Part shown: in pieces, positions 1 through 61,143 of the stretch
Layout: every line of letters starts with the position of its first letter
How positions within the stretch are numbered: the stretch's first letter is position 1
Source: Naegleria gruberi
Taxonomy: Eukaryota
Assembly: GCA_000004985.1 (NCBI GenBank)
Contig: GG738849.1
Strand: one strand, 5' to 3'
Length of the DNA: 64,000 nt
Position numbers and translations under genes: made by a program
The notes under the pieces: generated by a model
The model's input: only the letters and a program-made list of their open reading frames with translations
Databases searched by the model: none
Told to the model about the DNA's origin: nothing

Positions 1-148
1 CTCAAATAACAACAACAATCAATATATCAATATATCAACAATTATTGTGTCGTAATTTTTTAAAGGAACAACACACAATTTTTCAAAGACTAATATTCAA
101 GTTTACTAGTTGAATTCAACTCCCGATAATAATTCATCACAATATAAT

Positions 149-2020
149 ATGGCTCCAATGAAGACTGCTGCTGTTACTACTCCAGCAACTACCACAACCA
201 CAACTACTCCAGTCACTACCACAGCATTATTGCAAAATGTTCAATCCACACTTTCTAAATCCCTTGACACTTCTCTCAATGTCATTGGTAAACAACTTCA
301 AACTCTGGGTGTTAACCTTCCACAAGATCAACAAGAAAAGCTTAGCATGGCTGTTGGTTTAACAGGAGTTGGTGCCACTCTTTATATTTTGAATAAGATC
401 TGCAGTAAGATTATGAGAATGCTTACATTACCAAAACCAAGTTTTGCCAAGAAGGATTACGATGTAGTCATTGTTGGTGGTGGTATTGGTGGTTGTGCAT
501 TGGGAAGTGCATTGTCTAAGGCTGGAAAGAATGTGTTGGTTCTTGAAAGAGATATGAGTGAGCCAGATCGTATCATTGGTGAATTGCTTCAACCTGGTGG
601 TGTTCAACATTTGAAAGATTTGGGACTCGGACATTGTCTTGAAGGAATTGATGCTGCCAGAGTTTTTGGTTATCAAGTTTTCTATGGTGATGAACAAGTC
701 AATTTGCCATACCCAGCTGATTCCAACAGTAAGGTTGGTGAAAAGGTCGAAGGTAGATCATTCCACTATGGTAGATTCATTATGAATTTGAGAAGAGCTT
801 GTGAACAAGACGGGTAAGTATCAGTTAATTTTTTCACAAGTGTGATTGAAATATTTTATAGAGCTAAGATCTTGGAAAGAACTGTTGTTTCATTGATTGA
901 AAAGACACCAGGTTTGATTGAAGGTGTTCAATATAAGGAAGGTGATGCCACTGTTGAAGCTACTGGTAATATCGTCGTTGTCTGTAACGGTGCTGGTAGC
1001 TCTTACACTAGACAAGTTCGTTCTGATAAGGTCGGAAGTGGTAACAAGCCATTGGTTGTTTCTCAATTCATTGGTTTGGAACTTGCTGCTTCTGCTGACA
1101 AGTTGCCAAGACCAAATCACGGAAACGTATTCCTCTTGCCAGATGCTCCTTGCTTGCTTTACCCAAATAGTACAACTACAGTTAGATGTTTGATCGATTT
1201 CCCTGATGGAGATGCCAACAAATTACCAAAGAGAGGCGAAGAAATGGCCAAATACCTGCTTGAATATATCATGCCACACTTGCCAGAAAATTTACATGAA
1301 TCTTTCAAAGCTGAAGTTGATGCTGGCAGAATTAAGGTTGTTCAAAATCGTGAAATGCCAGGTGAAACACCAGAATCACTCACCAAGAAGGGAGTTGTTC
1401 TGATTGGTGATGCCATGAATTGCAGACATCCAATCACTGGTGGTGGTATGACTGTCACATTCTCCGATTGTAAGGAATTAGTTAAGGCCATTGTTCAAAT
1501 TAAGGATTTGAACTGTGTTTCTGAAGTTGATGAAGCAATTCAATCATTCTATGTTAACAGATCTAAGGTTGCAAGCACTATTAACATTCTTGCCAACGCA
1601 TTGTACAGTATCTTTGCTCCACCATCTGGAAGCAAATCTTGGGAAGCATATAAGAGTGAAGGTAAGAAGCCAGACGCTCTCTCAAACAATGACAGCATGT
1701 CAATTATGCGTAGAGCTGTTTTCGGATATTTCAAGAAGGGTGGTATTTGTCAAACTGGTCCATTGTCATTATTGAGTGGTATTTGGCATTCACCATATGG
1801 TCTCATTGCTCACTTCTTCTCTGTGGCCGTTATTGGTTCAGTTGATCTCATTAAGGAAGGAGGTATTTTGGGTATCTTTGGAAGTATATATAAGAGTTTG
1901 AAGATGATAACTGGTGCTACTACTCTCATTGCTCCACTTATTGCTGAAGAACGTTTATTATCTTGTATTTTCCCTGGTTTCATTTGGAGAAGAAAGCCAC
2001 TTCCACACCACCAAAAGTAA
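149..2020 (+). CDS. Squalene monooxygenase (squalene epoxidase), copy 1; exons 149..813 and 862..2020, 48-nt intron GTAAGT..TATAG
   Basis: FAD-binding N-terminus DYDVVIVGGGIGGCALGSALSKAGKNVLVLERD. SE-family motifs GELLQPGG, GRFIMNLR, LIGDAMNCRHPITGGGMTV. The spliced frame is continuous (GG|A gives Gly). ATG at 149; the track ORF starts earlier only through a TTG. Confidence 0.85.
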
Positions 2021-4099
2021 ATATCCCAAATCATTATAATCGAGTTTTTATCCTAATAAATCTAACTTAAAAATAATTAAAAAGTCTTACACATCATTTT
2101 GAAATTGGGATAGTTCAATAGCTATTTTTCAAACTGTATCTGAATAAAATTAAATTTTCTCTTCATAGCTCTTCATTTTCTTCGATTAGTTGTGGAGTTT
2201 CCTTGCGTGATTTTCACACCAGTCCACATTTTAAAATCCTTTGTAAACCGGGTTTTGTTTTGGTGGGAAAAGGGTTCGTGCAAAAGCTATTCCCGAATTG
2301 TCCGTTTAAGCAGCAATAAAGAAAAGCTAATAATCACAATTCCAACAATCAAACAGGTTTCAAAAAAACAAATCATTCCATGGTAAATACCTTTCAGAAC
2401 TTTCACCTAATTGCAAACATGTTCCACCTCGAAAGTTTATTTCAACTGTTTCACACTTCACATAAGATGTGGACAATAACTGGTTGTGGTCTTGTTGGCC
2501 TAATCATTCACAGGATATTAAACAAGTTTTACAAACTCCTGACATTACCAAAACCAAGTTTTGCCAAGAAGGATTACGATGTCGTCATTGTTGGTGGTGG
2601 TATTGGTGGTTGTGCATTGGGAAGTGCATTGTCTAAGGCTGGAAAGAATGTGTTGGTTCTTGAAAGAGATATGAGTGAGCCAGATCGTATCATTGGTGAA
2701 TTGCTTCAACCTGGTGGTGTTCAACATTTGAAAGATTTGGGACTTGGACATTGTCTTGAAGGAATTGATGCTGCCAGAGTATTTGGTTATCAAGTTTTCT
2801 ATGGTGATGATGAACAGGTCAATTTGCCTTATCCAATCGTTGAGGGAGGAAGAGCAGAAGGTAGATCATTCCACTATGGAAGATTCATTATGAATTTGAG
2901 AAGAGCTTGTGAACAGGATGGGTAAGTATCAAATAGTTTTCATATCAACTTAATGAAACCGAATGTTAAAGGGCTACATTATTGGAAAGAACTGTTGTTT
3001 CATTGATTGAAAAGACACCAGGTCTGATTGAAGGTGTTCAGTATAAGAAAAACAACAACGATTCAACTGTTGATGTCACTTGCAAACTTGTGATTATTTG
3101 CAATGGAGCTGGTAGTTCATTCACTAGACAAGTTCGTTCTGATAGATTTGGAAATAAGCCATTGGTTGTTTCTCAATTCATTGGTTTGGAACTTGCTGAC
3201 AGTGCTGAAAAATTACCAAAACCAAATCACGGAAACGTTTTTGTTTTACCAACTGGACCTGTTTGCTTTACCCAAACAGTTCTTTAACAGTGAGATGTTT
3301 AGTCGACTTTCCACATCCTGATTCGAATAAGTTACCAAAGAGAGGTGAAGAAATGACCAAATACTTGCTTGAATATATCATGCCACACTTGCCAGAAAAT
3401 TTACATGAATCTTTCAAGGCCGAAGTTGATGCTAGCAGAATTAAGGTTGTTCAAAATCGTGAAATGCCAGGTGAAACACCAGAATCACTCACCAAGAAGG
3501 GAGTTGTTCTGATTGGTGATGCCATGAATTGCAGACATCCAATCACTGGTGGTGGTATGACTGTCACTTTCTCCGATTGTAAGGAATTAGTTAAGGCCAT
3601 TATTCAAATTAAGGATTTGAACTGTGTTTCTGAAGTTGATGAAGCCATTCAATCATTCTATTCAAATAGGAAAAAAGTTGCATCCACAATTAATATTCTT
3701 GCAAATGCTTTGTATTCGATTCTTGCTCCTTCATTAACAGTAGTAAGAAATGATCAAGAGAAAACAATACACAAAGATGACACAGTTTCCTTATTGCGTA
3801 GAGCTGTTTTTAGGTACTTACAAAGGGGAAGCTTTTGTCAAACTGGTCCATTGTCATTATTGAGTGGTTTGTGGCATTCACCATATGGCCTTTTATTTCA
3901 TTTCTTTTCTGTTGCCTTACTGGGTTCAGTTGATCTCATTAAGGAAGGAGGTATTTTGGGTATATTTGGAAGTTTATATAAGAGTTTGAAGATGATAACT
4001 GGTGCTACTACTCTCATTGCTCCACTAATTGCTGAGGAACGTTTATTATCTTGTGTGTTTCCTCGATTCTTTTGGAAGAGAACTGCACCGATCAAGTAG
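420..4099 (+). repeat. Tandem direct duplication of the squalene epoxidase gene unit (about 1.9 kb per unit, including the intron)
   Basis: Long stretches of identical nucleotides, e.g. ttaccaaaaccaagttttgccaagaaggattacgatgt at about 425 and about 2545, and the shared intron donor context caagacgggtaagtatca / caggatgggtaagtatca. Confidence 0.8.
2380..4099 (+). CDS. Squalene monooxygenase paralog, copy 2. Same intron position (exons ..2921 and 2972..). A 1-bp frameshift near 3250-3265 splits the reading frame. Possible pseudogene or sequencing error.
   Basis: Near-identical protein blocks to copy 1: LTLPKPSFAKKDYDVVIVGGGIGGC... and CRHPITGGGMTVTFSDCKELVKA. Frame switches between ORFs 2982..3287 and 3263..4099: copy 1 reads CCTTGCTTGCTTTACC, copy 2 reads CCTGTTTGCTTTACC. 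The N-terminal region before the TM helix is unrelated to copy 1. Confidence 0.6.
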
Positions 4100-12236: not shown

Positions 12237-12442
12237 TTTTTTAGAAATTTAATTTATTACAAAAAAAATGTAAAGTATTGAACAACAAAAAACATTTTTG
12301 TAAAGTAGTTGAGTATTACAGATTTTTATGGATGAGTAATTGATAAATAATAATCAATTAATTTTTAAGTTTCATGAAGGAAGGAATAGGTTTTTAACTA
12401 TGTATTTAAGGAGAGTGAAGTACTAAGATAAATTAATGTGCT

Positions 12443-12513
12443 CGTCTCGTGGTGTAATGGTAGCATAGTGGACTTTGAATCCATTGACGGAGGTTCGATT
12501 CCTCCCGAGACGG
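12443..12513 (+). tRNA. tRNA-Gln (anticodon UUG)
   Basis: Cloverleaf: acceptor CGTCTCG/CGAGACG, D-arm GTGTAATGGTAGCA, anticodon stem GTGGA/TCCAT with loop CTTTGAA, T-arm GGAGG-TTCGATT-CCTCC. Confidence 0.85.
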
Positions 12514-13007
12514 TAAACGTGGCGAGCCCCTGAAATTTTGTTGAACTATGCTTTAGATATTTCAAATAATGAAAATGATTGTATATTTTTTAATTATTGA
12601 GGTCCTTTCATATGTTTGTGTATTTTATTGGTATACATTTGCTTATTGACAGCTTTAAAGGCAATTTCTAAATCATTTCTCATATTAAATTGTTTTAAAG
12701 ATTATGACAATTTATTTTCAATTGCTTATAAGGCCATTTCGTTTGTAATAAAGGATTGAAAATAGGTTTTTTCACCTGAAAAAATTGAAGTCCATTTCTA
12801 AAAGCAGTTTCAAATATTAAGCCCCTTACCACTTTATTATTGTACCTAAATTATCCATTATAATTTATCAATTAATTCTCATTCCAAGAGTTTCTTTGAT
12901 GTAAATAACACTATTTACAAAATCCATCTAATGGATTAAATTTAGCAAAACTAACCAGCCCATCCGCTACCCTTTTTAAACAAAATTTCAGAGGCTCGCC
13001 ACGTTTA

Positions 13008-13078
13008 CCGTCTCGGGAGGAATCGAACCTCCGTCAATGGATTCAAAGTCCACTATGCTACCATTACACCACGAGACG
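13008..13078 (-). tRNA. tRNA-Gln (anticodon UUG), second copy in inverted orientation
   Basis: Exact reverse complement of the 12443..12513 gene. Confidence 0.85.
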
Positions 13079-13299
13079 AGCACATTAATTATGTTAGAAC
13101 CCCAAACTACTTAAATACCCTTCAATTAAGGAAAGATCACCCAAGTCAGCGACTACCATTCTCCACAACCAATCCTCGCCTCCTTAAATAATATGTAAGA
13201 AAAGAATGTAACAATTGACTAGAACGCAAGTTGTAGAAAGTTGGCGGGAAATTTAAAAAAAAATTGCTAAACCGTTAATCTCTATTGTCAATCAGAAAA

Positions 13300-14099
13300 A
13301 TGGTTGGATTTTTTGAAAAGCTCGGGATTAAGAGGAAACGATTAAATTTAATTGTTTGTGGATTGGAAGGATCTGGAAAGAGTACATTAGTATGTTGATA
13401 AATTAACTAGAACAATTTTGTATTAAGGAAATATTCAAACAAATTGTTAATGAATTATTCAATACAACAGGTGAATCATTTAAAGTCGACATCGGAACAG
13501 AAGGAAAATATAATACCCACAGCTGGTTACAGCCTGGAGGAATTTAGTAGGAATGGGGTAGGTTTTCAAAATGAGGAAGTGATGAACCAATTAATTCTAT
13601 CTTACTAGTTTTTATGTAGATTATTTGATTTGAGTGGAGCTGGAAAGTACAGATCAATGTGGAAGTACTTTTTCGAAAATTTAGAAGGAATAATGTTTGT
13701 GGTGGATATTACGGATACAAAGAGGTAAGGAATTATGAAAATACCAATTGACCTTCAATTTATATTGTTGAATTCAGGTTGTGTGTAGCGAGGGATGAAC
13801 TGCATGATTTACTTTCGAATAAAGCACTGCATGGAGTGCCAATACTAGTCTGTGCAAACAAGATTGATGTCGAACAAAAGAAAGTATCCCTTGCACAGAT
13901 ACACAACATTTTAAGCTTGGAAGGAAGCAATAGAGAATGGAAAATCGAAGGAACCTCAGGTAAAGAAGGAACAGGAATAGAAGAATCATTCAGATGGTTA
14001 ATTAATTCAGCAGCAACTTTTGTAAGAGCAAAGAAAGAAGCTGAAAGGCAGATCATTGTTTCTAATCAGCAAGTTCAAAAATCCGATGGCTTAAATTAA
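13300..14099 (+). CDS. ARF-like small GTPase, ARL6/BBS3-like; 4 exons 13300..13389, 13471..13557, 13609..13724, 13778..14099
   Basis: Assembled protein MVGFFEKLGIKRKRLNLIVCGLEGSGKSTL|VNHLKSTSEQKENIIPTAGYSLEEFSRNG|FLCRLFDLSGAGKYRSMWKYFFENLEGIMFVVDITDTKR|LCVARDELHDLLSNKALHGVPILVCANKID... This shows the ARL6 signatures D-x-SG-x-G-(K/R)YR-x-W and IxFVxD. Introns are 81, 51 and 53 nt. Confidence 0.7.
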
Positions 14100-14150
14100 T
14101 TATACAATTCTAATTTAATGTATTACTATAATTTAATTAAATTTTCCAAT

Positions 14151-14801
14151 TTAAATTAATTTCTTCTTGATAAAGTATGATCGGAGGTAGTAGATTTGTC
14201 CAAAAGCAAAACCAGCCATAAAGATGAAGAAGAAAATACCCATGTATGTGATACGTTGATTAATAGTTTCAGTGGTGTATCTCATGGCACCTTCTCTTTC
14301 TCTGAAATAAACGTATTCAGCATAGATTGAGTGAACAATATCTTCCATCATTCTAAGATTAACTTCGATTGGCTTCAAATGTTCCTTTCTTGCCAATTGT
14401 TCATAATCAAAAGTATCTGTTCCGGTTAAGATATCAAAAGTAATACGACGACGCATTCCATCATGATAAGTAGCTTTAGAACTCATTCTATTGTAGAAAC
14501 AGAATGAATATTCTCCTCCTTCTTTAGCTACAAAACTAAGATCTCCTTTTTTAATATTCTTTCTTTCCAAAACAATATTTCCTCTTGGGTCAGTCACTTT
14601 AAAATCAATCTTTTGTGAATATCCAGCACCAACCTCATATTCTCCATAAACATCAAAAGTAGTAACAATTTCTTCACGGAAACAAACATAATCTCTAGCC
14701 TTTAAATCAAATTGAAAAGCATCAACTCGCAAAATACAAATCAGCAGCAGGACAGCAGCGATTAATACTATTGATGATGAAGTTGTTGTTTGTCCAGCCA
14801 T
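14151..14801 (-). CDS. p24/TMED (emp24/gp25L) cargo receptor with GOLD domain
   Basis: Signal peptide, then FQFDLKARDYVCFREEIV ... a C-terminal TM helix and a short cytosolic tail (FIKKKLI). Confidence 0.65.
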   Translation of the reverse strand: MAGQTTTSSSIVLIAAVLLLICILRVDAFQFDLKARDYVCFREEIVTTFDVYGEYEVGAGYSQKIDFKVTDPRGNIVLERKNIKKGDLSFVAKEGGEYSFCFYNRMSSKATYHDGMRRRITFDILTGTDTFDYEQLARKEHLKPIEVNLRMMEDIVHSIYAEYVYFREREGAMRYTTETINQRITYMGIFFFIFMAGFAFGQIYYLRSYFIKKKLI

Positions 14802-18518: not shown

Positions 18519-19028
18519 TTTGTTTTCTTTGTTGAAAAAAATGGAAAATTTTTTAAAAATGATTTTTTTTTGTGTTTAATATTTTTTTGGAGGCAACCAG
18601 AAAAGGCCCAAAATGGTAATATTAAAAAGTTTTTTAAATAAATTGTAAAGTATTTAAATATTATACTAGTGCACAATAGTATTGATAAAAAACTAGTTGA
18701 GAATCCATTGGAGTGTTTGTTGGTAAAATAGCTCAATGCCTGCTGTCCCCATCGCACAACAACTTTTCCATCATCACAACAACTTTAACAGCTGTCATTG
18801 ACGAGTTGACATTTTTAAAAAAAAATATTGGTCAACAAGTTTCCTCTCCATCATCAACGATATCCAAAACTCACACTTGTTTCCACACCAATAATAACAA
18901 CACAAACAAATTCCAAAATATTTTGGTAAGTTTTTTCATCATCAACACTAAATTTTTTTTAAAATTTACTTTTGTTGCAACGAATACGAATAACAATTAC
19001 TATTAAACTTTTTAATTACTTGACAGAA

Positions 19029-21491
19029 ATGAGTACCACTAAACAGCAACAACAACAACATCATATAGAAGAAAATGATGATCCATCACCACTTGATTTA
19101 ACACAATGGATTAGTACATTAACATCTTTGCAACCTAATTTTGAATTTTTATATCCAAATACCTGGAAGTTGGATTGTATGGCATCAGGAACATTAAAAT
19201 TAATTTCACCAACAGAAATATCACCATGGTTTAATCAGGAAGATGCCGATGATAGTGTAATGGATCAGATTCGAGTAGATTTTACACAGAAAAGTTCATC
19301 ATCACCTCATGAGGAAATTCACACGGAAACATTTAAAAAGTTAATGTCATCATATGCAATTTCAGATTATTGTGAAATTGAAGTGTTAAAGGACTGTCAA
19401 GTGTCAAATTCATTGAATGCCAAGAAGAGTCTAGTTCAATATACAAGTTATGGTAGAATTCAAATGACTCGTCATTATATTGTTACAGTTTCACTTCAAT
19501 CATGTACTTATATTTTCACATACTTGACTGAGAGTTTGAGTGGTGATAAGAATTTATTGGTATTTTACAAGTTTTTGAACAATTTTAAATTCCCTGAAAA
19601 TGGTTCAACATTTGTTTATGAATTACAAATGAATGAAAATTCAATCCTATTCGATATTCCATTTCCATATCAAGTTGTACAAAAGAGAGAATATTCTTTA
19701 ACTACCTATACTCCTTCACATGCCAAGTTTTCATCAACAGATATTACTCAACAACAATCTAAACAATTGTACTTTGATTTTCAAGTTTTTAGAACAGGTA
19801 CATCTACAATTGAAACTGTTGCTAATGAGGCATTGAATAGAACTGAAGGTGATTTTGATCAAAATTCTGCTAACTGTTATACTTTTAGTGTTTTACAAGG
19901 TGTTAAATCAACTGACCTCGTTCCAGAAAGTTTCACATTTAGTTACGAATATCAACACAATGAAGATAAGCAAGAAAGAAGATTTGTTGAAAAATATTTC
20001 ACTCCTCTCACAACAGGCGACATTTTGGTTTCAACATTTGTCAATTCATCCATTCCAAATGATATTCAAAATGAGGAATTACAAGTTTTTAAGAAGGTTC
20101 TCCAATCTTTTAAACTCGTATCTAGAAGTGAAAGAAAGCAATATTCTTCCAAGATTGTGAACAGTTCTACTCAGGTTTTGGGACAACAATTGAGTGAATT
20201 TAACATTACTGTTTATGGTGAATCAGGTGTAGGTAAATCATCACTCATTCATCAATACCTCACTGGTAATGAAGAGGTGGTAGCCCTTGCATCCAATAAG
20301 AAAGAACACAGCTATAGAAAATATGTTCCAAAATCTGAATCTCACTCTGCATTCGTTTTAAACATTCTCGACACTTGTGGAAATTATGAATATGAAAGTG
20401 GATGTCAATTTGAGAAGGCAATTAGAGCTGATGCAGTTCTTCTTATTTGCTCTCCTGATCAACAAACTTCCATTGATAGAATTGAAACATTCATTAACAG
20501 AATTGAAAGATTGAAAAAGAGAAAGTTGTCCGAAATTCCTTCACTCATTGTTTTTAACAAGTCTGATATTGAGGAAAATATTCTTGTCAAATCAGAGGAT
20601 GCTAAAAAGTTGGCAGATCAATATGGTATCACATTTATTGAATGTACCGCAAAGAAACAATCCAAGGTTAATGATTTATTTGATGGAGCTTTGATTTCTG
20701 AACTTTATTCCAAGCAATATATTTTAAATAGTATGCAATCAGACCAAAAGAAACTTTCAGAGGATATTGAAAACTTCCAATATTTGATTACTCAAAATCA
20801 AGTAGACCAAATTTCAACTCTCATTTCCGAATCAACATTCCCTCCTTCTTTGGCTTCTGAATATCTTAACCTTCCAATAATTTTCTATGGTGTCGATTCT
20901 GGTGTTGAAGGATCAACTCTCAGGCTTCTTATGGATTACAATAACAAATATGAAAAGTATAACCTCAAGAACTTTACAACCAAAGATATTAACGCCTTGA
21001 ATTTGGCAGCATTCGCTGCTACCAAAGGTAATCTAGTTGCCATCAAGGTATTGGAAGAATTTGGTATTACACTTGATCAAACAAATACTGACACTAATAT
21101 ATTGGCTCACATCCTTAATAGCTCCAGCGAAAATGACACTATTCAATATATTTTACAAAAGTACGAATCATTCCTTTCAAAGTATGTGAATGTGAGCTTT
21201 AAGGATGATGAAAATGGTTTAACCTATCCAATTCATACAGCCACCAAATCGGGATCTACATTCACTGTGAAATGGTTACTTTCACACGAAGGTTCACAAA
21301 CCATCAATGAAAAGGATAACTTGGGACTTACACCTTTGCTTTTGGCTGCTGCCGAAGGTAATGTTTCACTAGTTAAAATTCTTCTAGATTCTGGAGCTAA
21401 GCTTACAAACAGTGACGACACTTTCAAAGAATTTTTGAAAGAGAATTGTCCTGAAGACAAGTTGCCAGAAGTTTTGGCATTATTGCAATAA
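19029..21491 (+). CDS. Multidomain protein: about 400-aa N-terminal region of unknown function, then a Ras-like small GTPase domain, then C-terminal ankyrin repeats
   Basis: G1 GESGVGKSS, G3 DTCGNYE, G4 FNKSD. Ankyrin repeats NALNLAAFAATKGNLVAIKVLEEFG and GLTPLLLAAAEGNVSLVKILLDSGAK. Intronless 820-aa ORF. Confidence 0.6.
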   Translation: MSTTKQQQQQHHIEENDDPSPLDLTQWISTLTSLQPNFEFLYPNTWKLDCMASGTLKLISPTEISPWFNQEDADDSVMDQIRVDFTQKSSSSPHEEIHTETFKKLMSSYAISDYCEIEVLKDCQVSNSLNAKKSLVQYTSYGRIQMTRHYIVTVSLQSCTYIFTYLTESLSGDKNLLVFYKFLNNFKFPENGSTFVYELQMNENSILFDIPFPYQVVQKREYSLTTYTPSHAKFSSTDITQQQSKQLYFDFQVFRTGTSTIETVANEALNRTEGDFDQNSANCYTFSVLQGVKSTDLVPESFTFSYEYQHNEDKQERRFVEKYFTPLTTGDILVSTFVNSSIPNDIQNEELQVFKKVLQSFKLVSRSERKQYSSKIVNSSTQVLGQQLSEFNITVYGESGVGKSSLIHQYLTGNEEVVALASNKKEHSYRKYVPKSESHSAFVLNILDTCGNYEYESGCQFEKAIRADAVLLICSPDQQTSIDRIETFINRIERLKKRKLSEIPSLIVFNKSDIEENILVKSEDAKKLADQYGITFIECTAKKQSKVNDLFDGALISELYSKQYILNSMQSDQKKLSEDIENFQYLITQNQVDQISTLISESTFPPSLASEYLNLPIIFYGVDSGVEGSTLRLLMDYNNKYEKYNLKNFTTKDINALNLAAFAATKGNLVAIKVLEEFGITLDQTNTDTNILAHILNSSSENDTIQYILQKYESFLSKYVNVSFKDDENGLTYPIHTATKSGSTFTVKWLLSHEGSQTINEKDNLGLTPLLLAAAEGNVSLVKILLDSGAKLTNSDDTFKEFLKENCPEDKLPEVLALLQ

Positions 21492-23135: not shown

Positions 23136-25610
23136 ATGGGAGAGCTTATTGGGACCAGTATTTCCATTGAGGAATTTTTATTGATGGAAGGAGCGCATGC
23201 AACTACAGCTCTATCGGGATTACAATCCATTAATTTTGAAGCCATGTTGGAGGAGATTGATAAACGAATTGTGGAGGTGAATAAACAGTTGGATCAAACC
23301 AGTATTGTATTACCTGTAGATAATGGTAGGTGTTGTAGAAGATTTATGTGTGAGCTGTAACTATTCCTAATTTGATAAAAGATACAAAACCTAGACAGTA
23401 TAGTGATAAGGAGTTTTTGGAGGATTTAATTGTAATAATGAGATATTATCAGGAAACTGATTTATTTTCGAGTATGAATGTATTGCAAAAGATTGGAATT
23501 TTAAAAGAGGATTTTAAATACCGATGTTCGAGAGTTTTTAGAGATGAAAGATATAGGTTGGCTCCCCCTTTGGAATTGAATAATAGAAAGACTTTTGATA
23601 CAGAGTTTGAATTGGAGGAGGAAATTAATACATTTATTTATGCTATGGTTGCCTATCAAGTGAATGGAATATCTGATACACACCCAAAAAAAGATATGGA
23701 TAGGCGAAAACTATTGCTCTTGAATCTTTCATTGTCAATTGATTCAAGGGAGTTAAAGGAATTTGTAAGTGGGTTGTTAACTAATTGATCACCTTAATTA
23801 TTCCAATAGTACTATTCCCTTCGAGAAAAGGAAATTGCAGATTATGTGCCTTCTCTATCGACCGATGTAAAGCAACTGAATCTGGACATTTTCTTCAAGT
23901 TATCGAGAGATTTACTTTCCGTGATCAGAGAAGATTTTTCAATCACTTCAGAGGTGATAGATAATGAGTTTCTTATTGAAATGTTTGTATCACTGTATCT
24001 TAACAAGTATACAATAATGCTGGGTGATATTTGTTTGGATGTTGCTGAGAGTTTATATAATCATAAGGTGTCCTCAATAATGCCAAATATTATTGAAATA
24101 TTCGAGTTGGCGCTTGACTTTCAAGAAAATGTTTCAAATCTAATCAATAAGAAAAAAGGGAAGTCAAAGAAACAAGAGCAACAATTGTCTATATCTGTTC
24201 CTAAACAAGTGGATTTCTCCTTTGGTTCAAAAACCTTCATATTCGGATATGATAATTTTGTTTCATCCACTCTTAATGGAATTACAGTTGAAATAGTGTT
24301 CATATTGGGAGAGGTTTGTAATGGATTATTTGGAAAGGAAATTTCATTTGAGAGCTTTACCAAGAGTAACGAGCATCCAATCCTCAAGGATGTGAAATCC
24401 TTGATGGATAAGTTGACTCACATTATTACAATGTTCTCAAAACATGGACTTACGGATTTCAAAAATAATATTCTGAAGAAAATTTGTTACGGATTTTCAG
24501 TGTTGTTGGGGAAATTTGATGAATTTCTTTTCAAGAGTGATTTCGATCCGAAATTATTGAAGAACTTATGTAAGTAATCTAATACTGTAACTTCGTCTTA
24601 ACCTGTTCAAAGATGTTGCCTACTCTACATTATTGTACTGTTGTGACTCTGTGAGCTATTTTGGTGCATTGTACAATGAAACAATTGAGCATTGTGTGGA
24701 GGAAAAAACCTTTGATTTTACCCAAATGAATAACTTTTACAGGGAAAAATCAAAAACATTTAGGGATTTCATAATCGAGTATCATAGTAGTATAATTTCA
24801 TTATATTGTGTACCAGATGTTAGGTATCAAATGGATTGGGATACTCATAGAAAATTCTTGAATGATGATAGGTGTAGTTATGGTATCCAGATGTGGAATT
24901 ACTATATGAAATCGACTTGTAAAGAGCTCTTCAAAAGTATTCCTGACTACTTTGCCAGCGACTTGTTCAGTGAATTACTCTTCAATTCAGCAAAGGCATG
25001 GAATGAAACGTATTCCAACATTTTCCCAACAACCAAGAAGAAATCATTGCAATTTAGAAATGACATCAGCTTCTTAATCATGTATATAAGGTCATTTAGA
25101 GGAGTTTTAGATTCCAAATTTGAAAAGTCAATTAACAGGGAATGCTTAAAATTACTAGTTTACATGGCAATACTCTGTGCGCCATTTCCAGCAATTAAAA
25201 CATTTCTGCAAAGTATTGAAACTAAGGAAGGGAATCTGCTTTCTGCTAGATTCGTTGTAATCTACCAACAGTCCAAACCAGTCAAGTATATTAAGGGGAT
25301 ACCAATTCTGGTATGGAATTCTCCTAAATTCAATCCTATGTTTGAATTTGATCACTTAATAGAATATAACCGAATAGGAAATGAATCTAATGTAGGAACC
25401 AACGAAATTGATTTCTCCGAGGTTAAGAATGTTTCCTTTGACTTTCCAATACTGTTACACGGATACTACGTGTTTGGCATGTCAATACTTTCACTATGTA
25501 ATAGAATATTACTGAGATGTGAGTATAACGATAATGATTACCCTCCTCCAAGTGATGAAGAGAAAGTGATGCGAGAGGATATTAAAGGCATAATAGCCAC
25601 ACTAAAGTAA
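23136..25610 (+). CDS. Hypothetical protein, 4 exons: 23136..23325, 23382..23764, 23810..24569, 24613..25610
   Basis: Three introns (56, 45 and 43 nt; donors GTAGGT/GTAAGT/GTAAGT, AG acceptors) connect four consecutive ORFs with consistent phases. No recognisable domain. Confidence 0.5.
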
Positions 25611-42241: not shown

Positions 42242-44035
42242 TTAAAAGGTTGGGATATTGGAGAGGAAGAGAGATGGATCTTCTTTCTTGATCCAATTTT
42301 TGATTTGTTCACAAATTGCAATCATGTCAGATTTGGAAGCTAACAATGAAAATGTAGCATAAATTTCCAAATTACCAGTCCACAGTCCAATAACAGATTC
42401 ATATTTGGTGCTTTCCACGTAGGTTCTTACTTGAGATCCAATATTTTTGTTTGGAATGGATTCGAGTTTCTCTCTTGTTGATTTGTACAATCTGAGAATT
42501 CTCTTTCTTTCCTTCTTGGTATGATAAGGTGGTAAGAATTTAGTGGAACAAGTTTGGCAAATTGAAATAGTGGTTGATTTGATTCTACAATTGAAATGTC
42601 TGAGGAAAGTTTGAGTCATTAAAAAGTCATCTGCTGTTGGGGATGAAGCTGTTTGTCTGACATTTGTGAAAATCTCGTTAACTGGTGGATAAGGTGATTT
42701 GGAAGCATTGACAACAGATGGGAAGCACTCGGATTGAATAAGGTCATGTAAAGTTTGAGTTTGAGATTGTTGACAGTCAAAGAAAGACTCTGTACTCATA
42801 CAAATCATTACATAGCACCAATTTTCTGTGAAATAAATTATATAAGCATAGACATAGGATGTCTCTGAGAGTCCAGGTAAGCAAATAGGAGTCCAAGTCT
42901 CGCTGCTCTTCATTGAAGAGTGTGCAGATCCAACAAAATTCATCAGTAAGAGTAAATCTTTGGTTTTCATATTGTACTTCTTGTTTCTAATCATGTGAAC
43001 AAGGGTATTATCGCAAATCATTAAGGAGAACATGAGCTTATTTTGAACTCTATTCTTCATCATGATATCACCTATTTGATTTCTAGTATTCTTTGGCAAC
43101 CTCAGAACATGTGTTGAATCAAACGAAAAATCAATAGAATTACTCATTCTATTAATTAGAGAATAAATAATCTTATCAGTTCCTCCCAATAAATTTCTCA
43201 AATCAAAATTAGATCTCTTTTGTAATATATCTTGGATATTCTTCGATGTAAGTATAAATACAAGTTGTTCGTAAATAGTTTCCAATTGTTTGGCAATTTC
43301 AATATTAGTTTCTGATGTTCTACATGCAGAAACGAAGTAGAGTGCTCCTTTAAGAACATAGACAAACCTCAAATCTCCACAATTAACGGTTCTTACAGTA
43401 CCTCCTTCTTTTGAGACAATAGTTACAATACCAAGGAAAAAACTAAGAATGGTATTCAATTGATTTTCATCACCATATCTTGCAAAAATTGGTTTACCAG
43501 CTTCGCTCAAAATGAAAATGTGTTTTTGATGTAGTTGCCATTTCAATTGAGTTTGATCTTCATCAATATGTTTTAAATATTTTGGCATTTCCTCAGGAAC
43601 AATATTCAATGAGTTTGAGGAGTCATTTGATTTGTTAATAATTATTGATGAAACAGCATAATCACTATTTGTTTGTTCCTCAAATTCTGTTTTAAAGGTA
43701 TCCTTATGTTCAACTACAACTACATTCTCGAACAATGTTGATGATTGTTCTGCAGTACAAACATTTTCATTTGAAACATCAGACAAGGTTTCTGATTGTG
43801 AAGCTCCAGTTTCCAAATCCTTATCTTCCAAATGAGCTTCCTTTATGATGGCTTCGGAGCCTTCTGTTGAAATTTGATCCTCTTCATTATAAATAATTTG
43901 TGAATAGGCTGCTGTCTCCTCATCATCAGAGGTATCGAATTTATCAACAACACTTGTTGGAAAATTACTTGATGAAGGATTAACCAAATTGATGGGACTG
44001 TCCACTTGTGTATTTAAACTTCCTTGTCGAGTCAC
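42242..44035 (-). CDS. MON1 (SAND family) homolog; 5' end unresolved (a possible upstream exon near 44150..44190)
   Basis: HIFILSEAGKPIFARYGDE...FVYVLKGALYFVSACRTSETNIEIAKQLETIYEQLVFILTS...RSNFDLRNLLGG match the MON1 longin-domain consensus. Confidence 0.7.
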   Translation of the reverse strand: MTRQGSLNTQVDSPINLVNPSSSNFPTSVVDKFDTSDDEETAAYSQIIYNEEDQISTEGSEAIIKEAHLEDKDLETGASQSETLSDVSNENVCTAEQSSTLFENVVVVEHKDTFKTEFEEQTNSDYAVSSIIINKSNDSSNSLNIVPEEMPKYLKHIDEDQTQLKWQLHQKHIFILSEAGKPIFARYGDENQLNTILSFFLGIVTIVSKEGGTVRTVNCGDLRFVYVLKGALYFVSACRTSETNIEIAKQLETIYEQLVFILTSKNIQDILQKRSNFDLRNLLGGTDKIIYSLINRMSNSIDFSFDSTHVLRLPKNTRNQIGDIMMKNRVQNKLMFSLMICDNTLVHMIRNKKYNMKTKDLLLLMNFVGSAHSSMKSSETWTPICLPGLSETSYVYAYIIYFTENWCYVMICMSTESFFDCQQSQTQTLHDLIQSECFPSVVNASKSPYPPVNEIFTNVRQTASSPTADDFLMTQTFLRHFNCRIKSTTISICQTCSTKFLPPYHTKKERKRILRLYKSTREKLESIPNKNIGSQVRTYVESTKYESVIGLWTGNLEIYATFSLLASKSDMIAICEQIKNWIKKEDPSLFLSNIPTF

Positions 44036-55910: not shown

Positions 55911-58900
55911 TTAAACAAAACAACAACAGAATAATCTGCAAGCATCTTGATGCTCTGGAGAGTTCTTCACTCTGCCCAAACACCCTCCAAGAATATCCCA
56001 ACTCTTATATCCATCTGTATAGTCATGTTCACTGGCAAAGAATGGATTAATTTCCAAAGATTTAACTTGATCAACATATTGCCAAACAACAACCTTGTAT
56101 AAAACTCTGAGATATCTATTTTGATCTCTAGAGGACTTGTCTTCCTTGCCATCATCAAGAACAGCTCCAACCTTGTTGACACGCTTAGTGTAAACCATAA
56201 AGTTGGCAACCCAAGAGAATTTGACAGGAACGAAAGGAAGTAGGCACCATCTAGACGATTTAGTGCTCCATCTTTCAAATTTGAAGAATGGGAAGACGAG
56301 GAATTTCAAAAGTTTGTGACCTTCCTTAAGAGATTTGGAATATCTGATGAAACTGACTTGACGAACAAACAGCCAGAACAAACTCCACTTCTTTTCCTTA
56401 ACTCTTGTATCGCTTGCATAGAAATAGAGGAAGAGTATAAAACTAGTGATTTTAGAGTCCTTATTATCAGACGCGCCACCTGCAAGAATATGTCCATCAC
56501 CAAAAACTTGTCTTCCAAAATGGAACATAGAAACAAACTTGTGGAATAACCAGAGAAGTGACAAGTAGAATGTTGATGTGCCTCCTTCCTTAGAAGAATG
56601 GAAAAGTATGAGTGGGAAAATATAGAAAAGTCTGCTAAAATCTTCACGGCATCTTGAGAGTTTGAATCTTAATGTGGACAATAATGGATGGAATAACCAA
56701 GCAAATGAGTGAGTCAAAGTTGTCTTGGATGATGCAAATTCCTTTGTGAAGGAGTATAACATGAAAATATAAAAGCACAAATCTTGAGTAGATTTGGTCT
56801 TATTTCCCACATTCGAGATGAATGTTACAATATTCCAATATCTCACGAGTGCTAGCTTGTAATAGAACAAGAAGAAAATAGACCAATCTATTCTTTTGGT
56901 TAAATTTGAGCTGTGATCCTTTGTTTGATGAATGAAAAGTGGGAAAATGTAGAACATTGTATCACAATAGGTTCTGGTTCTATCTTTACCAAAATAAATG
57001 ATAGCCAAATTTTTGTGGAAGAAATAGAAGATTGAAATGTCAAACTTCTTTCCAGCTTCTCCTGAAGAATCATTGGTATATCTCACAAGTGGGAATGAAT
57101 AAAATCCAGAATCTGTATGACCGTTAGCAAATAACTTCCAATAGTGGGCCATGGCAATTCTCTTGTAGAATAACCATAACATGAATAAGTGAGTTTTTGT
57201 CTCGAGTGTGACGGATTCCCTTTCTCTTTCAAGGAAGAATATTGGGAACAGATAGGTAAGAATCTTCTTCCTATTTCCCTCAACAACACATCTCCAAAAG
57301 AAAACTGAAACATATTTTTCTACCAGGAATAGAACTGAGAGGAATTTGAACGCTCTAGTAGTCGTCTTAACTGCTCTATAGAAAACCAATGGATAGGCAA
57401 ACCAACCTTGTTCGTTCTCATACTTCCAAACACAGAAAAAGGTAACATATTTGTAAAAGAGCCAGAACAATGAGAATTCTCTCCTTTCAATATTTCCAGT
57501 CATGTGCTTGTAAAAGTATAAACTCATTACGAATTGTCTGTGATTCTTGTTAGAGTAATCATCTGTATTAGTACTCATGGAAACAGAAGGTTGTGTACAA
57601 AGTACGTTATTGTGGAAGAGAGCAAGCCACTTGGTGAACATCCAAACCAAACAGAAAGTCTTTCTCAAACTTGTTCCACTCACGTTGGTATACTTGAGAA
57701 TGACGAGGAAAATGTAGAACCCTTGCTTTCTGTTACTAGTTGTGGTTAAACTCCATGCACGTATCAAGGACAGGTTCTTTGTGAAAAACCAAAATCCGTA
57801 GTGAACATCTTCTTGGACAGTCTTGCTTGGTTGGGTGAGATCGTACTTGATATCTCTATAGTAAAGTGGTGATATGTGAAGTCTCTGCTCTCCAATTTTT
57901 CTTTGATCAATTGGTTTGTAAGTGGAGTATTCATACTCAACAATCCAGTTAATAATAGAGACTCCCCATGTTTTTGGAGCTGGCAACCATAACCATTTCC
58001 AAACTTTGTTTGAATCATTGCATGAATAATAATAAATTGGGAATAGGAAGGAGCTAGTATCACTCTTAGTAATTTGGTTGCTTTCTTTAGAAGTGTTGAC
58101 AACCTTATCCATGGTGAAAAGAGCTGCAGTCTTGTGTAATATCCAAAGCAAAGAAAAGCTTCTTTCAAATACTTCCTCCAAAGTTGTTGTCTTAGTTTGC
58201 TTATCAAAGTAAAATAGAGGCAAAACATAACAGCACAAATAATTGTAGGCATCAGTGGAATATTGTTGGTTCCAATATATAAAGCTCCAACCTTGTCTGA
58301 AAATCCATAGGAATGAGAGAGTAAAATCATTACCTACAACCTCACCATGACCTGTCCACCAATTTTTGACAGTACTGAAGAATAATAGGAACACATACAT
58401 GCTAGATCTATGAGAGTTTGGAGTTATTAATCTGGTATATCTAAATAAGGCAACCTTTTCACTGATAAAATAGATTAGCGAGAATGACAAATATTGACCA
58501 TTACGTAAGGCATTAACAACTTGGTTATTTCTATCAATCTTGATATAAAAAAGAGGAAGTATGTACATTGACTTGATCATCTCTCTATAATCTAAAATAA
58601 TCCTGCCCAATGATAAATCTTTCAAGAGCCAGAATAATGCCACAGTTATTAGTGGAGCATATTGCTTGGTTTCTGAGCTGGTTAAATCAGGAGTTTCCAA
58701 AGCTCTTTTTTCAAAATAAAAGAAGGGGAAGGCAAACAACCTCCAACGCCTCATCATAGAAGTACCCTCAGCTGATCCAACATACTTGCTATCATATTGT
58801 ATCAAACTGTATCTAGTTCTTGGAATATAGAAAAGCTTGAAGTAATAATTTTTGTCCTGGGAATCGATTGATAAATCGAAAATAAAATGCAAGTGGGCCG

Positions 58901-60815
58901 ATTTCTTGCGTCTATCGTTTCTAATGAAAAAGAATGGGAAAATAAAAGTGTACTTCCAATATCTATTGTAAACATAGAAAGGGAATATAGTACTCATGGT
59001 AACTTTTCCATCTTCAACACTATGATAGAAATATGGTGGAAGGAAAAAGAAGGATCCCATTCTGATACTTTCATTCTTTGAAACAAATGAGTAGTAACAG
59101 ACAAAGAGCCAAATGGTTACTTCGTCATAAATCTTTCTATGACCAAAGAGTCCACCAACAAATAACCTAGTATGTGATAAAACCTCATCTGTTTGCTTGT
59201 AACTTGTATAGGTAATGTACAAAAAGAAAGGATACGTTACCAATTTGTGAGATTGCTTTTTGTGTAATTTAGAATATATGATAAGTATGGAGAGATAGTT
59301 CTTCTCCTCTGATCTTCTAGCATAAAGAAGGACAAAAAGTAAGAATGTTTTCTCCTTTCCTATATCTGAATAATAGAAAATTGGGAAGAGCCACACTCTC
59401 ATCTTTTCAATACTCTTCTGATTTCTGTAATAGAATAAATAAAATAGATTCACCATAATATCCTCTCTGCCATCAATATTCTCCTTAAAGAAATAGAAGA
59501 GTAAAGGTATGAGGAATATTTTAGTAGTATCATCTGTTGTCTTTCCATCTCTGATACCAATATCCTTTCGTACCCAATAAAATGGGAGGAAGACATTATT
59601 GTAATCTGTTGAGGTGGTACCTTCGGTTTCATATTTTGACTTATGGAACCAGAATAAAAGTAAGGTGGTGAAAAAGGTTTTTGAGGTTTTGGATGTAGAA
59701 TAATTGTAAATAGTTTTTTTGAAGTAAGTAAAAAGCAAAGGAATAAATAAATGCCAATCATGATCGTGATATTTAGAATAATAGAAGAATGGGAAGAGGT
59801 AGATCCTTCGTTTCATAAGTTGTTTTTCATATTTTGCATGCATGAAAAATGGTGTGATGAAAGTATAAACCTTCTCTGAATTTTTAAAGTAGAAAAAGAG
59901 TAGGAATATCCAAAAGATGTGATGTCCTTTGCTTTCTCCCTTATCTAGAGAAATTTTGATGTGTAATAATCCCCAAATACCAAAGGTAAACTTGGCAGGT
60001 TCAGATGGACTACAATTTTTGGAAGATACGTGTTTCCAATAAAAGAAAAGAACAAATCCTCTGGACCCTCCTTTTTTCAAAAATCTAATCCAACAAATTG
60101 GAAGGAATCTAAGTGAATGTTTTTCTGGCGATCTTTCATATTTCAAAAAAGGCCATGGCATGTGAAGTGTAAAATTACCTTCACCTTTTCTAACTCTGAA
60201 TAGAGGATATAAGATTGACCATTCCTGATATTTTCCTGGTCTTAACTGAGTTCCGAAGAAGGGCCACATTTGTCTGATTCTAAACTTGCCATTTTCAAAT
60301 AAGAAATAGAATGGCAATACTATATTCAAATGTGTTTCTTTTGTTTTGTACTTCCAAAAGAATGGAAATAGTGTCTGGAATGACATGTTATTGTCATCTG
60401 TTCTTTTCGATTCATTAGAGAAATACATAAAAGGGAGAATGGCCATGAACTTGGTTTCTTGAGCTGCATGAAAAGTTTTACGTAAAAAGTACAAGAGACC
60501 TGCCAATATCATGGTTGTTTGTGAAGTCTTACTCTTTCTATGAAAAGTAAGGAATGGAAGAAGAAATAATGTTACAGCATCAATAGAAACCTTATACAAG
60601 ATACTATAAAACAAGAACATGATAGTGAGTGCATTTGTACTGCTATCACTTTCATACTTGAATAGGAATGGACGAATACTAAACTTTTTCCTCGTTCCAT
60701 ACCTTTCATATCTAATGAGAGGCCACATAATATCAGTCTCCGATCTATCCACATTTGAGGTGTGGGAAACAAAGGGCCAAGCTTTGATTTTAAAATCTCT
60801 GTGTCTGCTGGCCAT
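55911..60815 (-). CDS. Giant intronless repeat protein (1634 aa) made of about 70 degenerate aromatic repeats of about 16-24 aa
   Basis: Uninterrupted 4.9-kb ORF in AT-rich DNA. Recurring cores LPFYW, FLIPLLFYFFK, WLFPIFYY, FIFPFFFIRN, LFWLFYKYV, FYIFPLF. One long hydrophobic segment sits near the N-terminus. No match to a family I can name. Confidence 0.6.
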   Translation of the reverse strand: MASRHRDFKIKAWPFVSHTSNVDRSETDIMWPLIRYERYGTRKKFSIRPFLFKYESDSSTNALTIMFLFYSILYKVSIDAVTLFLLPFLTFHRKSKTSQTTMILAGLLYFLRKTFHAAQETKFMAILPFMYFSNESKRTDDNNMSFQTLFPFFWKYKTKETHLNIVLPFYFLFENGKFRIRQMWPFFGTQLRPGKYQEWSILYPLFRVRKGEGNFTLHMPWPFLKYERSPEKHSLRFLPICWIRFLKKGGSRGFVLFFYWKHVSSKNCSPSEPAKFTFGIWGLLHIKISLDKGESKGHHIFWIFLLFFYFKNSEKVYTFITPFFMHAKYEKQLMKRRIYLFPFFYYSKYHDHDWHLFIPLLFTYFKKTIYNYSTSKTSKTFFTTLLLFWFHKSKYETEGTTSTDYNNVFLPFYWVRKDIGIRDGKTTDDTTKIFLIPLLFYFFKENIDGREDIMVNLFYLFYYRNQKSIEKMRVWLFPIFYYSDIGKEKTFLLFVLLYARRSEEKNYLSILIIYSKLHKKQSHKLVTYPFFLYITYTSYKQTDEVLSHTRLFVGGLFGHRKIYDEVTIWLFVCYYSFVSKNESIRMGSFFFLPPYFYHSVEDGKVTMSTIFPFYVYNRYWKYTFIFPFFFIRNDRRKKSAHLHFIFDLSIDSQDKNYYFKLFYIPRTRYSLIQYDSKYVGSAEGTSMMRRWRLFAFPFFYFEKRALETPDLTSSETKQYAPLITVALFWLLKDLSLGRIILDYREMIKSMYILPLFYIKIDRNNQVVNALRNGQYLSFSLIYFISEKVALFRYTRLITPNSHRSSMYVFLLFFSTVKNWWTGHGEVVGNDFTLSFLWIFRQGWSFIYWNQQYSTDAYNYLCCYVLPLFYFDKQTKTTTLEEVFERSFSLLWILHKTAALFTMDKVVNTSKESNQITKSDTSSFLFPIYYYSCNDSNKVWKWLWLPAPKTWGVSIINWIVEYEYSTYKPIDQRKIGEQRLHISPLYYRDIKYDLTQPSKTVQEDVHYGFWFFTKNLSLIRAWSLTTTSNRKQGFYIFLVILKYTNVSGTSLRKTFCLVWMFTKWLALFHNNVLCTQPSVSMSTNTDDYSNKNHRQFVMSLYFYKHMTGNIERREFSLFWLFYKYVTFFCVWKYENEQGWFAYPLVFYRAVKTTTRAFKFLSVLFLVEKYVSVFFWRCVVEGNRKKILTYLFPIFFLERERESVTLETKTHLFMLWLFYKRIAMAHYWKLFANGHTDSGFYSFPLVRYTNDSSGEAGKKFDISIFYFFHKNLAIIYFGKDRTRTYCDTMFYIFPLFIHQTKDHSSNLTKRIDWSIFFLFYYKLALVRYWNIVTFISNVGNKTKSTQDLCFYIFMLYSFTKEFASSKTTLTHSFAWLFHPLLSTLRFKLSRCREDFSRLFYIFPLILFHSSKEGGTSTFYLSLLWLFHKFVSMFHFGRQVFGDGHILAGGASDNKDSKITSFILFLYFYASDTRVKEKKWSLFWLFVRQVSFIRYSKSLKEGHKLLKFLVFPFFKFERWSTKSSRWCLLPFVPVKFSWVANFMVYTKRVNKVGAVLDDGKEDKSSRDQNRYLRVLYKVVVWQYVDQVKSLEINPFFASEHDYTDGYKSWDILGGCLGRVKNSPEHQDACRLFCCCFV

Positions 60816-61143
60816 TTTCAAAGATCAACAATAATAGCAACCTAGCACAATATCAATTATTAGAATAGTAATTTATGATAACGTTGATGATGGTGATGAC
60901 TATATAAACTTTGGTGTGTTGATATTTAATGAAACACCTATTCCGGGTGATGGTGTTATCGGGTGATGATCTTTGCTATTTTTTTGTTGTTGAAAGTCCA
61001 ACACAAGTTCTTATTTGAGGCGAGCATTTTTCTGCAGTGAACTTGGAAGTAACTTGAATGATGTATTGCTCACCAACAGCTTTTTCAAGAATAAAATAAG
61101 AAATTGACAAGATATGGGAAGAGAATTGGAAAGAACATGTAGT

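Follow-up and report, generated by a model that had tools for sequence, protein, structure and literature searches.

A probable divergent ARL6/BBS3-family GTPase, one of two in the amoeboflagellate Naegleria gruberi

The DNA analysed here, a stretch of 64,000 nucleotides (the window), carries a four-exon gene on the plus strand that runs from an ATG at position 13300 to a TAA at position 14099 (Table 1). The gene was assembled from a three-frame forward translation, in which the coding blocks are separated by stops, and GT..AG pairs were enumerated; one model only gave an uninterrupted product that keeps the architecture of the G domain. The product is a 204-aa ARF-family GTPase. The first-pass annotation of this DNA had described a four-exon gene with DLSGAGKYRSMW, IMFVVDITD and VARDELHDLL, all of which are present in the 204-aa product, and the observation of the gene is confirmed as real and far beyond chance. 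The helix alpha4 in exon 4 (RLCVARDELHDLL) corresponds to the BBS1-contact helix of ARL6, and the C-terminal extension encoded by the same exon comprises about 28 aa (residues 177-204).

Table 1. Gene model of the ARF-family GTPase and other features located in the window
Feature	Position	Strand	Description
First squalene epoxidase gene	110-2020	+	ORFs 110-817 (FAD-binding) and 842-2020 (SE domain); apparent tandem with the second gene
Second squalene epoxidase gene	3263-4099	+	SE-domain ORF
Inverted repeat, first arm	12431-12545		115 nt, contains a tRNA-Gln gene
tRNA-Gln(UUG)	12442-12514	+	
Inverted repeat, second arm	12976-13090		115 nt, contains a tRNA-Gln gene
tRNA-Gln(UUG)	13007-13079	-	
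Exon 1	13300..13389	+	Start codon, N-terminal amphipathic segment MVGFFEKLGIKRKR (no Gly2), P-loop GLEGSGKST
Intron 1	13390..13470	+	81 nt, GTATGT...ACAG
Exon 2	13471..13557	+	alpha1/switch I with ARL6-typical two-residue insertion (HLKSTSEQKENIIPTAGY), start of interswitch
Intron 2	13558..13608	+	51 nt, GTAGGT...CTAG
Exon 3	13609..13724	+	beta3, switch II (FLCRLFDLSGAGKYRSMW, Ala at the catalytic Gln position), alpha3, IMFVVDITDTK
Intron 3	13725..13777	+	53 nt, GTAAGG...TCAG
Exon 4	13778..14099	+	Helix alpha4 (RLCVARDELHDLL), NKID (G4), G5 region, C-terminal extension, TAA
Ras/Roc-ankyrin ORF	18972-21491	+	839 aa, Ras/Roc-type GTPase domain (residues ~412-572) and C-terminal ankyrin repeats
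DUF4495-domain ORF	24633-25610	+	
Three-longin-domain protein	42242-44035	-	FUZ/MON1/HPS1 type
Long ORF	55911-60821	-	1636 aa

The boundaries of intron 2 were fixed by comparison. Removal of the 51-nt intron leaves exactly 21 residues from P-T to F-D, the same number as in human ARL6, and the N. fowleri orthologue reproduces the junction (EEFSRNGYLCRVFDLSG). On both counts two shorter in-frame alternatives are ruled out, a 30-nt intron that would lengthen the interswitch by 8 residues and one of 27 nt that would delete FDLS of the G3 motif. A 923-bp contig from Logan/ENA was considered as cDNA proof of splicing and rejected, as it is genomic DNA with the introns present; it is collinear with window positions 13257-14170 at 99.56% identity, without gaps and with the introns included. 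The matching sequence (contig L001, 1-914, from Logan ERR1078381 and also in ENA ERZ929261) is a metagenome contig of project PRJEB11402, and its identity to the locus indicates that N. gruberi-like DNA was present in that sample. The gene caller applied to this contig predicted the last exon only, as a 106-aa fragment, and this fragment has been used as the representative of the cluster to which the N. gruberi database entry belongs.

The two tRNA-Gln(UUG) genes upstream lie within an inverted repeat with arms 98% complementary and 430 nt apart, situated about 220 nt upstream of the start codon, and a p24 gene also neighbours the locus. Two apparent squalene epoxidase genes stand in tandem near the start of the window. 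The ORF that joins a Ras/Roc-type GTPase domain to ankyrin repeats is another unusual small-GTPase architecture within the window. The 30 window ORFs scanned included no ciliary genes; the three-longin-domain protein was considered as the ciliogenesis factor FUZ and rejected, being a MON1 homologue (PDB E = 4e-57). The DUF4495-domain ORF had no relative among solved structures, and the 1636-aa ORF gave no Pfam match at E <= 1e-5.

The assembled GTPase was identical, residue for residue, to XP_002681589.1 (EFC48845.1, UniProt D2V256) of N. gruberi NEG-M. The same sequence appears as NgrArl6b [Naegleria gruberi] in supplementary dataset 1 of Vargova et al. 2021 (Genome Biol Evol 13:evab157; PMC8358228). 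In Table S1 of that paper XP_002681589.1 is assigned to Arl6 by IQ-TREE, and Table S3 gives Arl3=1, Arl6=2, Arl13=1 and Arl16=1 for N. gruberi (PMC8358228). The second Arl6 paralogue, NgrArl6a (XP_002683577.1), starts with MGAFNSKKK, has FDMSGQGKYRNLW as its switch II and is predicted to be myristoylated (PMC8358228); the two are called Arl6b and Arl6a below. The name given to D2V256 by NCBI and UniProt is only the generic 'ARF/SAR family small GTPase', the ARL6 assignment being found in the specialist paper, while XP_002683577.1 carries the ARL6 name in UniRef. The database name of XP_002681589.1 under-describes the gene in comparison with the specialist literature.

Three intron-less ORFs of the window were likewise identical to N. 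gruberi NEG-M proteins (XP_002681595.1, XP_002681599.1 and XP_002681739.1), which brings the exact matches, GTPase included, to four. The first-pass annotation had taken the genome to be dictyostelid-like, and this description had to be abandoned: when the window proteins were tested for dictyostelid affinity, the exact matches came from N. gruberi and the next ones from N. fowleri, N. lovaniensis and Willaertia. A dictyostelid-like, non-ciliated genome that unexpectedly kept ARL6 could be read only from the AT-rich composition (32-39% GC) and the short introns, neither of which is specific to dictyostelids, and against four identical N. gruberi proteins this reading retains practically no probability. 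The same annotation had offered a flagellated source, for example a heterolobosean, as the first of its alternatives, and that is the organism found. N. gruberi is a heterolobosean amoeboflagellate whose amoebae turn into swimmers in about an hour; the basal bodies and flagella of the swimmer, two of each, arise de novo (PMC4819266). As the host is N. gruberi rather than a dictyostelid, there is no ARL6 paradox to explain, and a non-ciliary role is not needed to account for the presence of the gene. A GTPase specific to cilia seemed to occur in a lineage without them only because the organism had been misidentified; the gene is already known, having been annotated and published in an organism where ARL6 is expected. 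Further cilium-linked genes of N. gruberi have been reported in the literature, namely Arl3, Arl13, Arl16, RABL2 and a Tectonic1 orthologue. BBSome and IFT subunits are reportedly present in this species as well.

The family assignment of the product was examined at several levels. The Arf profile of Pfam (PF00025) scored 137.1 bits against a cut-off of 22.3, with residues 4-175 covering profile positions 4-173 of 174, and the nucleotide-binding motifs are all present (G1 GLEGSGKS, G3 DLSG, G4 NKID). The five best distinct sequences in a PDB search were all ARL6: bovine ARL6 (6VBV, 3e-34), human ARL6 (2H57, 4e-33), two Chlamydomonas chain sequences (4V0M/4V0K, about 1e-32) and T. brucei ARL6 (4BAS, 2e-31), followed by ARL3 (3e-29) and ARF1 (2e-27). 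Pairwise identities were less discriminating, with 34-37% to canonical ARL6 proteins (37% to Arl6a) against 30-33% to other ARF/ARL proteins. A margin of a few points would fit a protein that is no ARL6 orthologue but a lineage-specific, fast-evolving member of the ARF/ARL family, placed with ARL6 by convergence or as a long-branch artefact; we regard this as very unlikely, since ARL6 proteins from four distant lineages outrank all other paralogues in the PDB search.

Phylogenetic placement bears on the same question. Neighbour-joining (NJ) trees were built from Kimura distances over 177-178 trimmed columns with 200 bootstraps, a simple distance approach and thus a modest method, with references from human, Naegleria and others taken from the Vargova dataset. 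In the 46-taxon tree, the window protein and its N. fowleri orthologue fell within an ARL6-only clade at 65% bootstrap, and the Neovahlkampfia 'Arl6a/b' sequences fell outside it. Both the low support in this smaller taxon set and the ungrouped Neovahlkampfia proteins speak for the non-orthologue reading, the latter because the signal can evidently be weak for divergent members. Because they did not group with ARL6 in the first tree, the Neovahlkampfia sequences were left out of the 54-taxon tree, to which Willaertia and nine more ARL6-type matches were added. With the long branch broken in this way, support for the ARL6-only clade rose to 88.5%, which speaks against an artefact, as does the independent published maximum-likelihood classification as Arl6. 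The N. gruberi, N. fowleri and Willaertia Arl6b proteins formed a clade at 99.5% in the 54-taxon tree, in which Arl6a and Arl6b were not exclusive sister taxa.

Searching 1.84 billion cluster representatives exhaustively with phmmer gave 12,248 matches. Among the best 45 of the 12,248, nearly all best-scoring proteins shorter than ~260 aa matched an ARL6 reference best; the Arf1-like entries that scored higher contain two domains, and each of their scores adds up two stretches. The top match was the 203-aa protein KAL9642697.1 of Willaertia magna (P0014; 58% identity).

The switch II of the window protein, FDLSGAGKYRSMW, fits the ARL6 pattern F-D-x-S-G-x-G-[KR]-Y-R-x-x-W, in which Y-R takes the place of [ILF]-R. 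Of the 118 canonical ARL6 proteins sampled, all had S-G and 114 had Y-R, and the window protein has both; non-ARL6 paralogues have G-G in place of the ARL6 S-G. The S-G signature is not universal in the family, G-G being found in ARL6 of T. brucei and in Arl6b of Willaertia. Also common to the window protein and ARL6 are F-D in place of W-D, the two extra residues ahead of switch I and the hydrophobic face of alpha4, R-L-x-V-A-R-D-E. The sharing of these rare characters (S-G with Y-R, F-D, the insertion and the alpha4 face) also argues against the protein being a non-ARL6 member of the ARF/ARL family. In the alignment, the N-terminal segment MVGFFEKLGIKRKR lies opposite the N-terminal helix of ARL6 proteins. 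The catalytic Gln (Q73 in human ARL6), present in 116 of the 118 canonical proteins, is replaced by Ala. The same residue occurs natively in Chlamydomonas ARL6 (CreArl6a, FDMSGAGRYRTLW; SGAG) and in T. brucei ARL6 (GGAK); Ala for the catalytic Gln is unusual, though neither unprecedented nor disqualifying for ARL6.

The PDB matches, the 88.5% NJ clade, the published IQ-TREE class and the switch II signature bear out the ARL6 identification of the first-pass annotation, which had suggested a phylogeny with the ARF/ARL family; in our trees the protein lies in the ARL6 clade, away from ARL2/3/11 and ARF. Taken together, these observations support the classification of the protein, as far as its sequence tells, as an ARL6/BBS3-type GTPase. 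The gene is the annotated NEG-M gene for XP_002681589.1, NgrArl6b, and its product is very probably the divergent one of two ARL6/BBS3-family GTPases in an amoeboflagellate.

The two paralogues have diverged to different degrees. Identities of Arl6b to its orthologues were 77% in N. fowleri, 73% in N. lovaniensis and 58% in W. magna, whereas the corresponding values for Arl6a were 88% in N. fowleri and 81% in Willaertia, and its identity to the animal ARL6 proteins compared was 51-56%. The presence of orthologues of both in Naegleria and Willaertia indicates that both paralogues predate the split of these genera, and the lower orthologue identities of Arl6b indicate a higher rate of evolution than that of Arl6a. 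None of the four Arl6b orthologues retains the catalytic Gln: N. gruberi, N. fowleri and N. lovaniensis have Ala, and Willaertia has Ile, which its switch II combines with G-G. Arl6b has no Gly2 and therefore cannot be myristoylated. Its G5 region is altered, the usual 'SNAL/SDAI' motif being missing, and its ~28-aa C-terminal tail recurs in the N. fowleri and Willaertia proteins with the conserved pattern AATFV..KKEA..I[IL].

The surface through which ARL6 meets the BBSome was then compared. In the bovine BBSome-ARL6 structure, the BBS1 beta-propeller contacts the switch II loop, alpha3 (75-78) and alpha4 (98-108) (PMC7018513), and the comparison covered human ARL6 positions 71-79 and 98-108, 20 residues in all. 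In these segments the window protein was identical to Chlamydomonas ARL6 at 13 of 20 positions, about as good as Arl6a, which was identical to human ARL6 at 14 of 20; non-ARL6 paralogues reached at most 11 of 20. The comparison showed the switch II/alpha3/alpha4 BBS1-contact surface of Arl6b to be conserved, at the level of sequence, as an ARL6-type surface. By analogy with mammalian, Chlamydomonas and trypanosome ARL6, Arl6b in its GTP state would insert its predicted N-terminal amphipathic helix into the membrane at the base of the flagellum or close to it. Its switch II/alpha3/alpha4 surface would then bind the BBS1 beta-propeller and so recruit the BBSome coat, by which membrane proteins of the flagellum are moved. 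With Ala at the position of the catalytic Gln, a residue that Chlamydomonas ARL6 has there natively, intrinsic GTP hydrolysis would be expected to be slow. The canonical paralogue, Arl6a, could carry the BBSome function alone. In the literature searched, no functional or expression data for the Arl6b paralogue were found, and its accession was not cited in any of the papers.

A role of this kind for Arl6b has to be weighed against neofunctionalisation. After duplication in an ancestor of Naegleria and Willaertia, Arl6a may have kept BBSome recruitment while Arl6b became a slow-hydrolysing switch with another effector or compartment, possibly independent of cilia. The faster evolution of Arl6b, the loss of the catalytic Gln in all of its orthologues, the absence of a myristoylation site that Arl6a is predicted to use, the changed G5 motif and the conserved tail would all fit such a history. 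Two of these traits are, however, shared with bona fide BBSome-recruiting ARL6 proteins, in which Ala at the Gln position and absent myristoylation also occur: CreArl6a has the Ala, BdeArl6 has no Gly2, and both HsaArl6 and CreArl6a were scored as not myristoylated. The BBS1-contact segments of Arl6b are moreover clearly ARL6-like, and every species known to have Arl6b is an amoeboflagellate. Neofunctionalisation therefore seems to us possible, but rather unlikely.

The sequence features of Arl6b would allow a sub- or neofunctionalised role, without demonstrating one. Arl6b is so far a subfamily of Naegleria and Willaertia only, without the Gln, without a lipid anchor and with a conserved tail. 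We put forward only tentatively, as an outcome less probable than its opposite, that it may have been sub- or neofunctionalised, either as a slow-cycling ARL6 for de novo assembly of basal bodies and flagella or as a cilium-independent switch, as proposed for the Neovahlkampfia copies. Dewees et al. name a single exception to the restriction of ARL6 to ciliated lineages, the heterolobosean Neovahlkampfia with its two putative, highly divergent ARL6 copies. Outside the window, the heterolobosean Acrasis kona encodes an ARL6a-type protein (P0172) of canonical appearance, with 60% identity to NgrArl6a and an intact SGQG. Acrasis is not known to have a flagellate stage; if the genus is truly without flagellates, it would be a second heterolobosean exception to ciliated-only ARL6, after Neovahlkampfia.

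For specialists, the interest of the locus lies in the occurrence of two ARL6 genes in Naegleria and Willaertia, the window copy being divergent and without the catalytic Gln. As Naegleria needs only about an hour to build its whole flagellar apparatus de novo, a comparison of Arl6a and Arl6b in this organism could reveal how ARL6 function may come to be partitioned.

Among known systems, the closest is NgrArl6b of Vargova et al. 2021, the same gene, with a 204-aa sequence that shows no difference. Within the genome, NgrArl6a (XP_002683577.1) belongs to the same orthogroup as Arl6b, and both are conserved in N. fowleri and Willaertia; the two are 37% identical, and Arl6a keeps the Gln and Gly2 and evolves more slowly. 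The ARL6/BBS3 of Chlamydomonas reinhardtii (CreArl6a; PDB 4V0K-4V0O), crystallised with the BBS1 beta-propeller, shares with the window protein S-G-A-G-[KR]-Y-R (Ala for Gln), MxxFF[DE]KL at the position of the N-terminal helix and VARDE[LM] in alpha4, at ~34% identity (PDB match E = 1e-32). Unlike CreArl6a, the window protein has no Gly2, carries the ~28-aa C-terminal tail and has GTSGKEG instead of PSNGLTG at G5. [quoted passage not shown]
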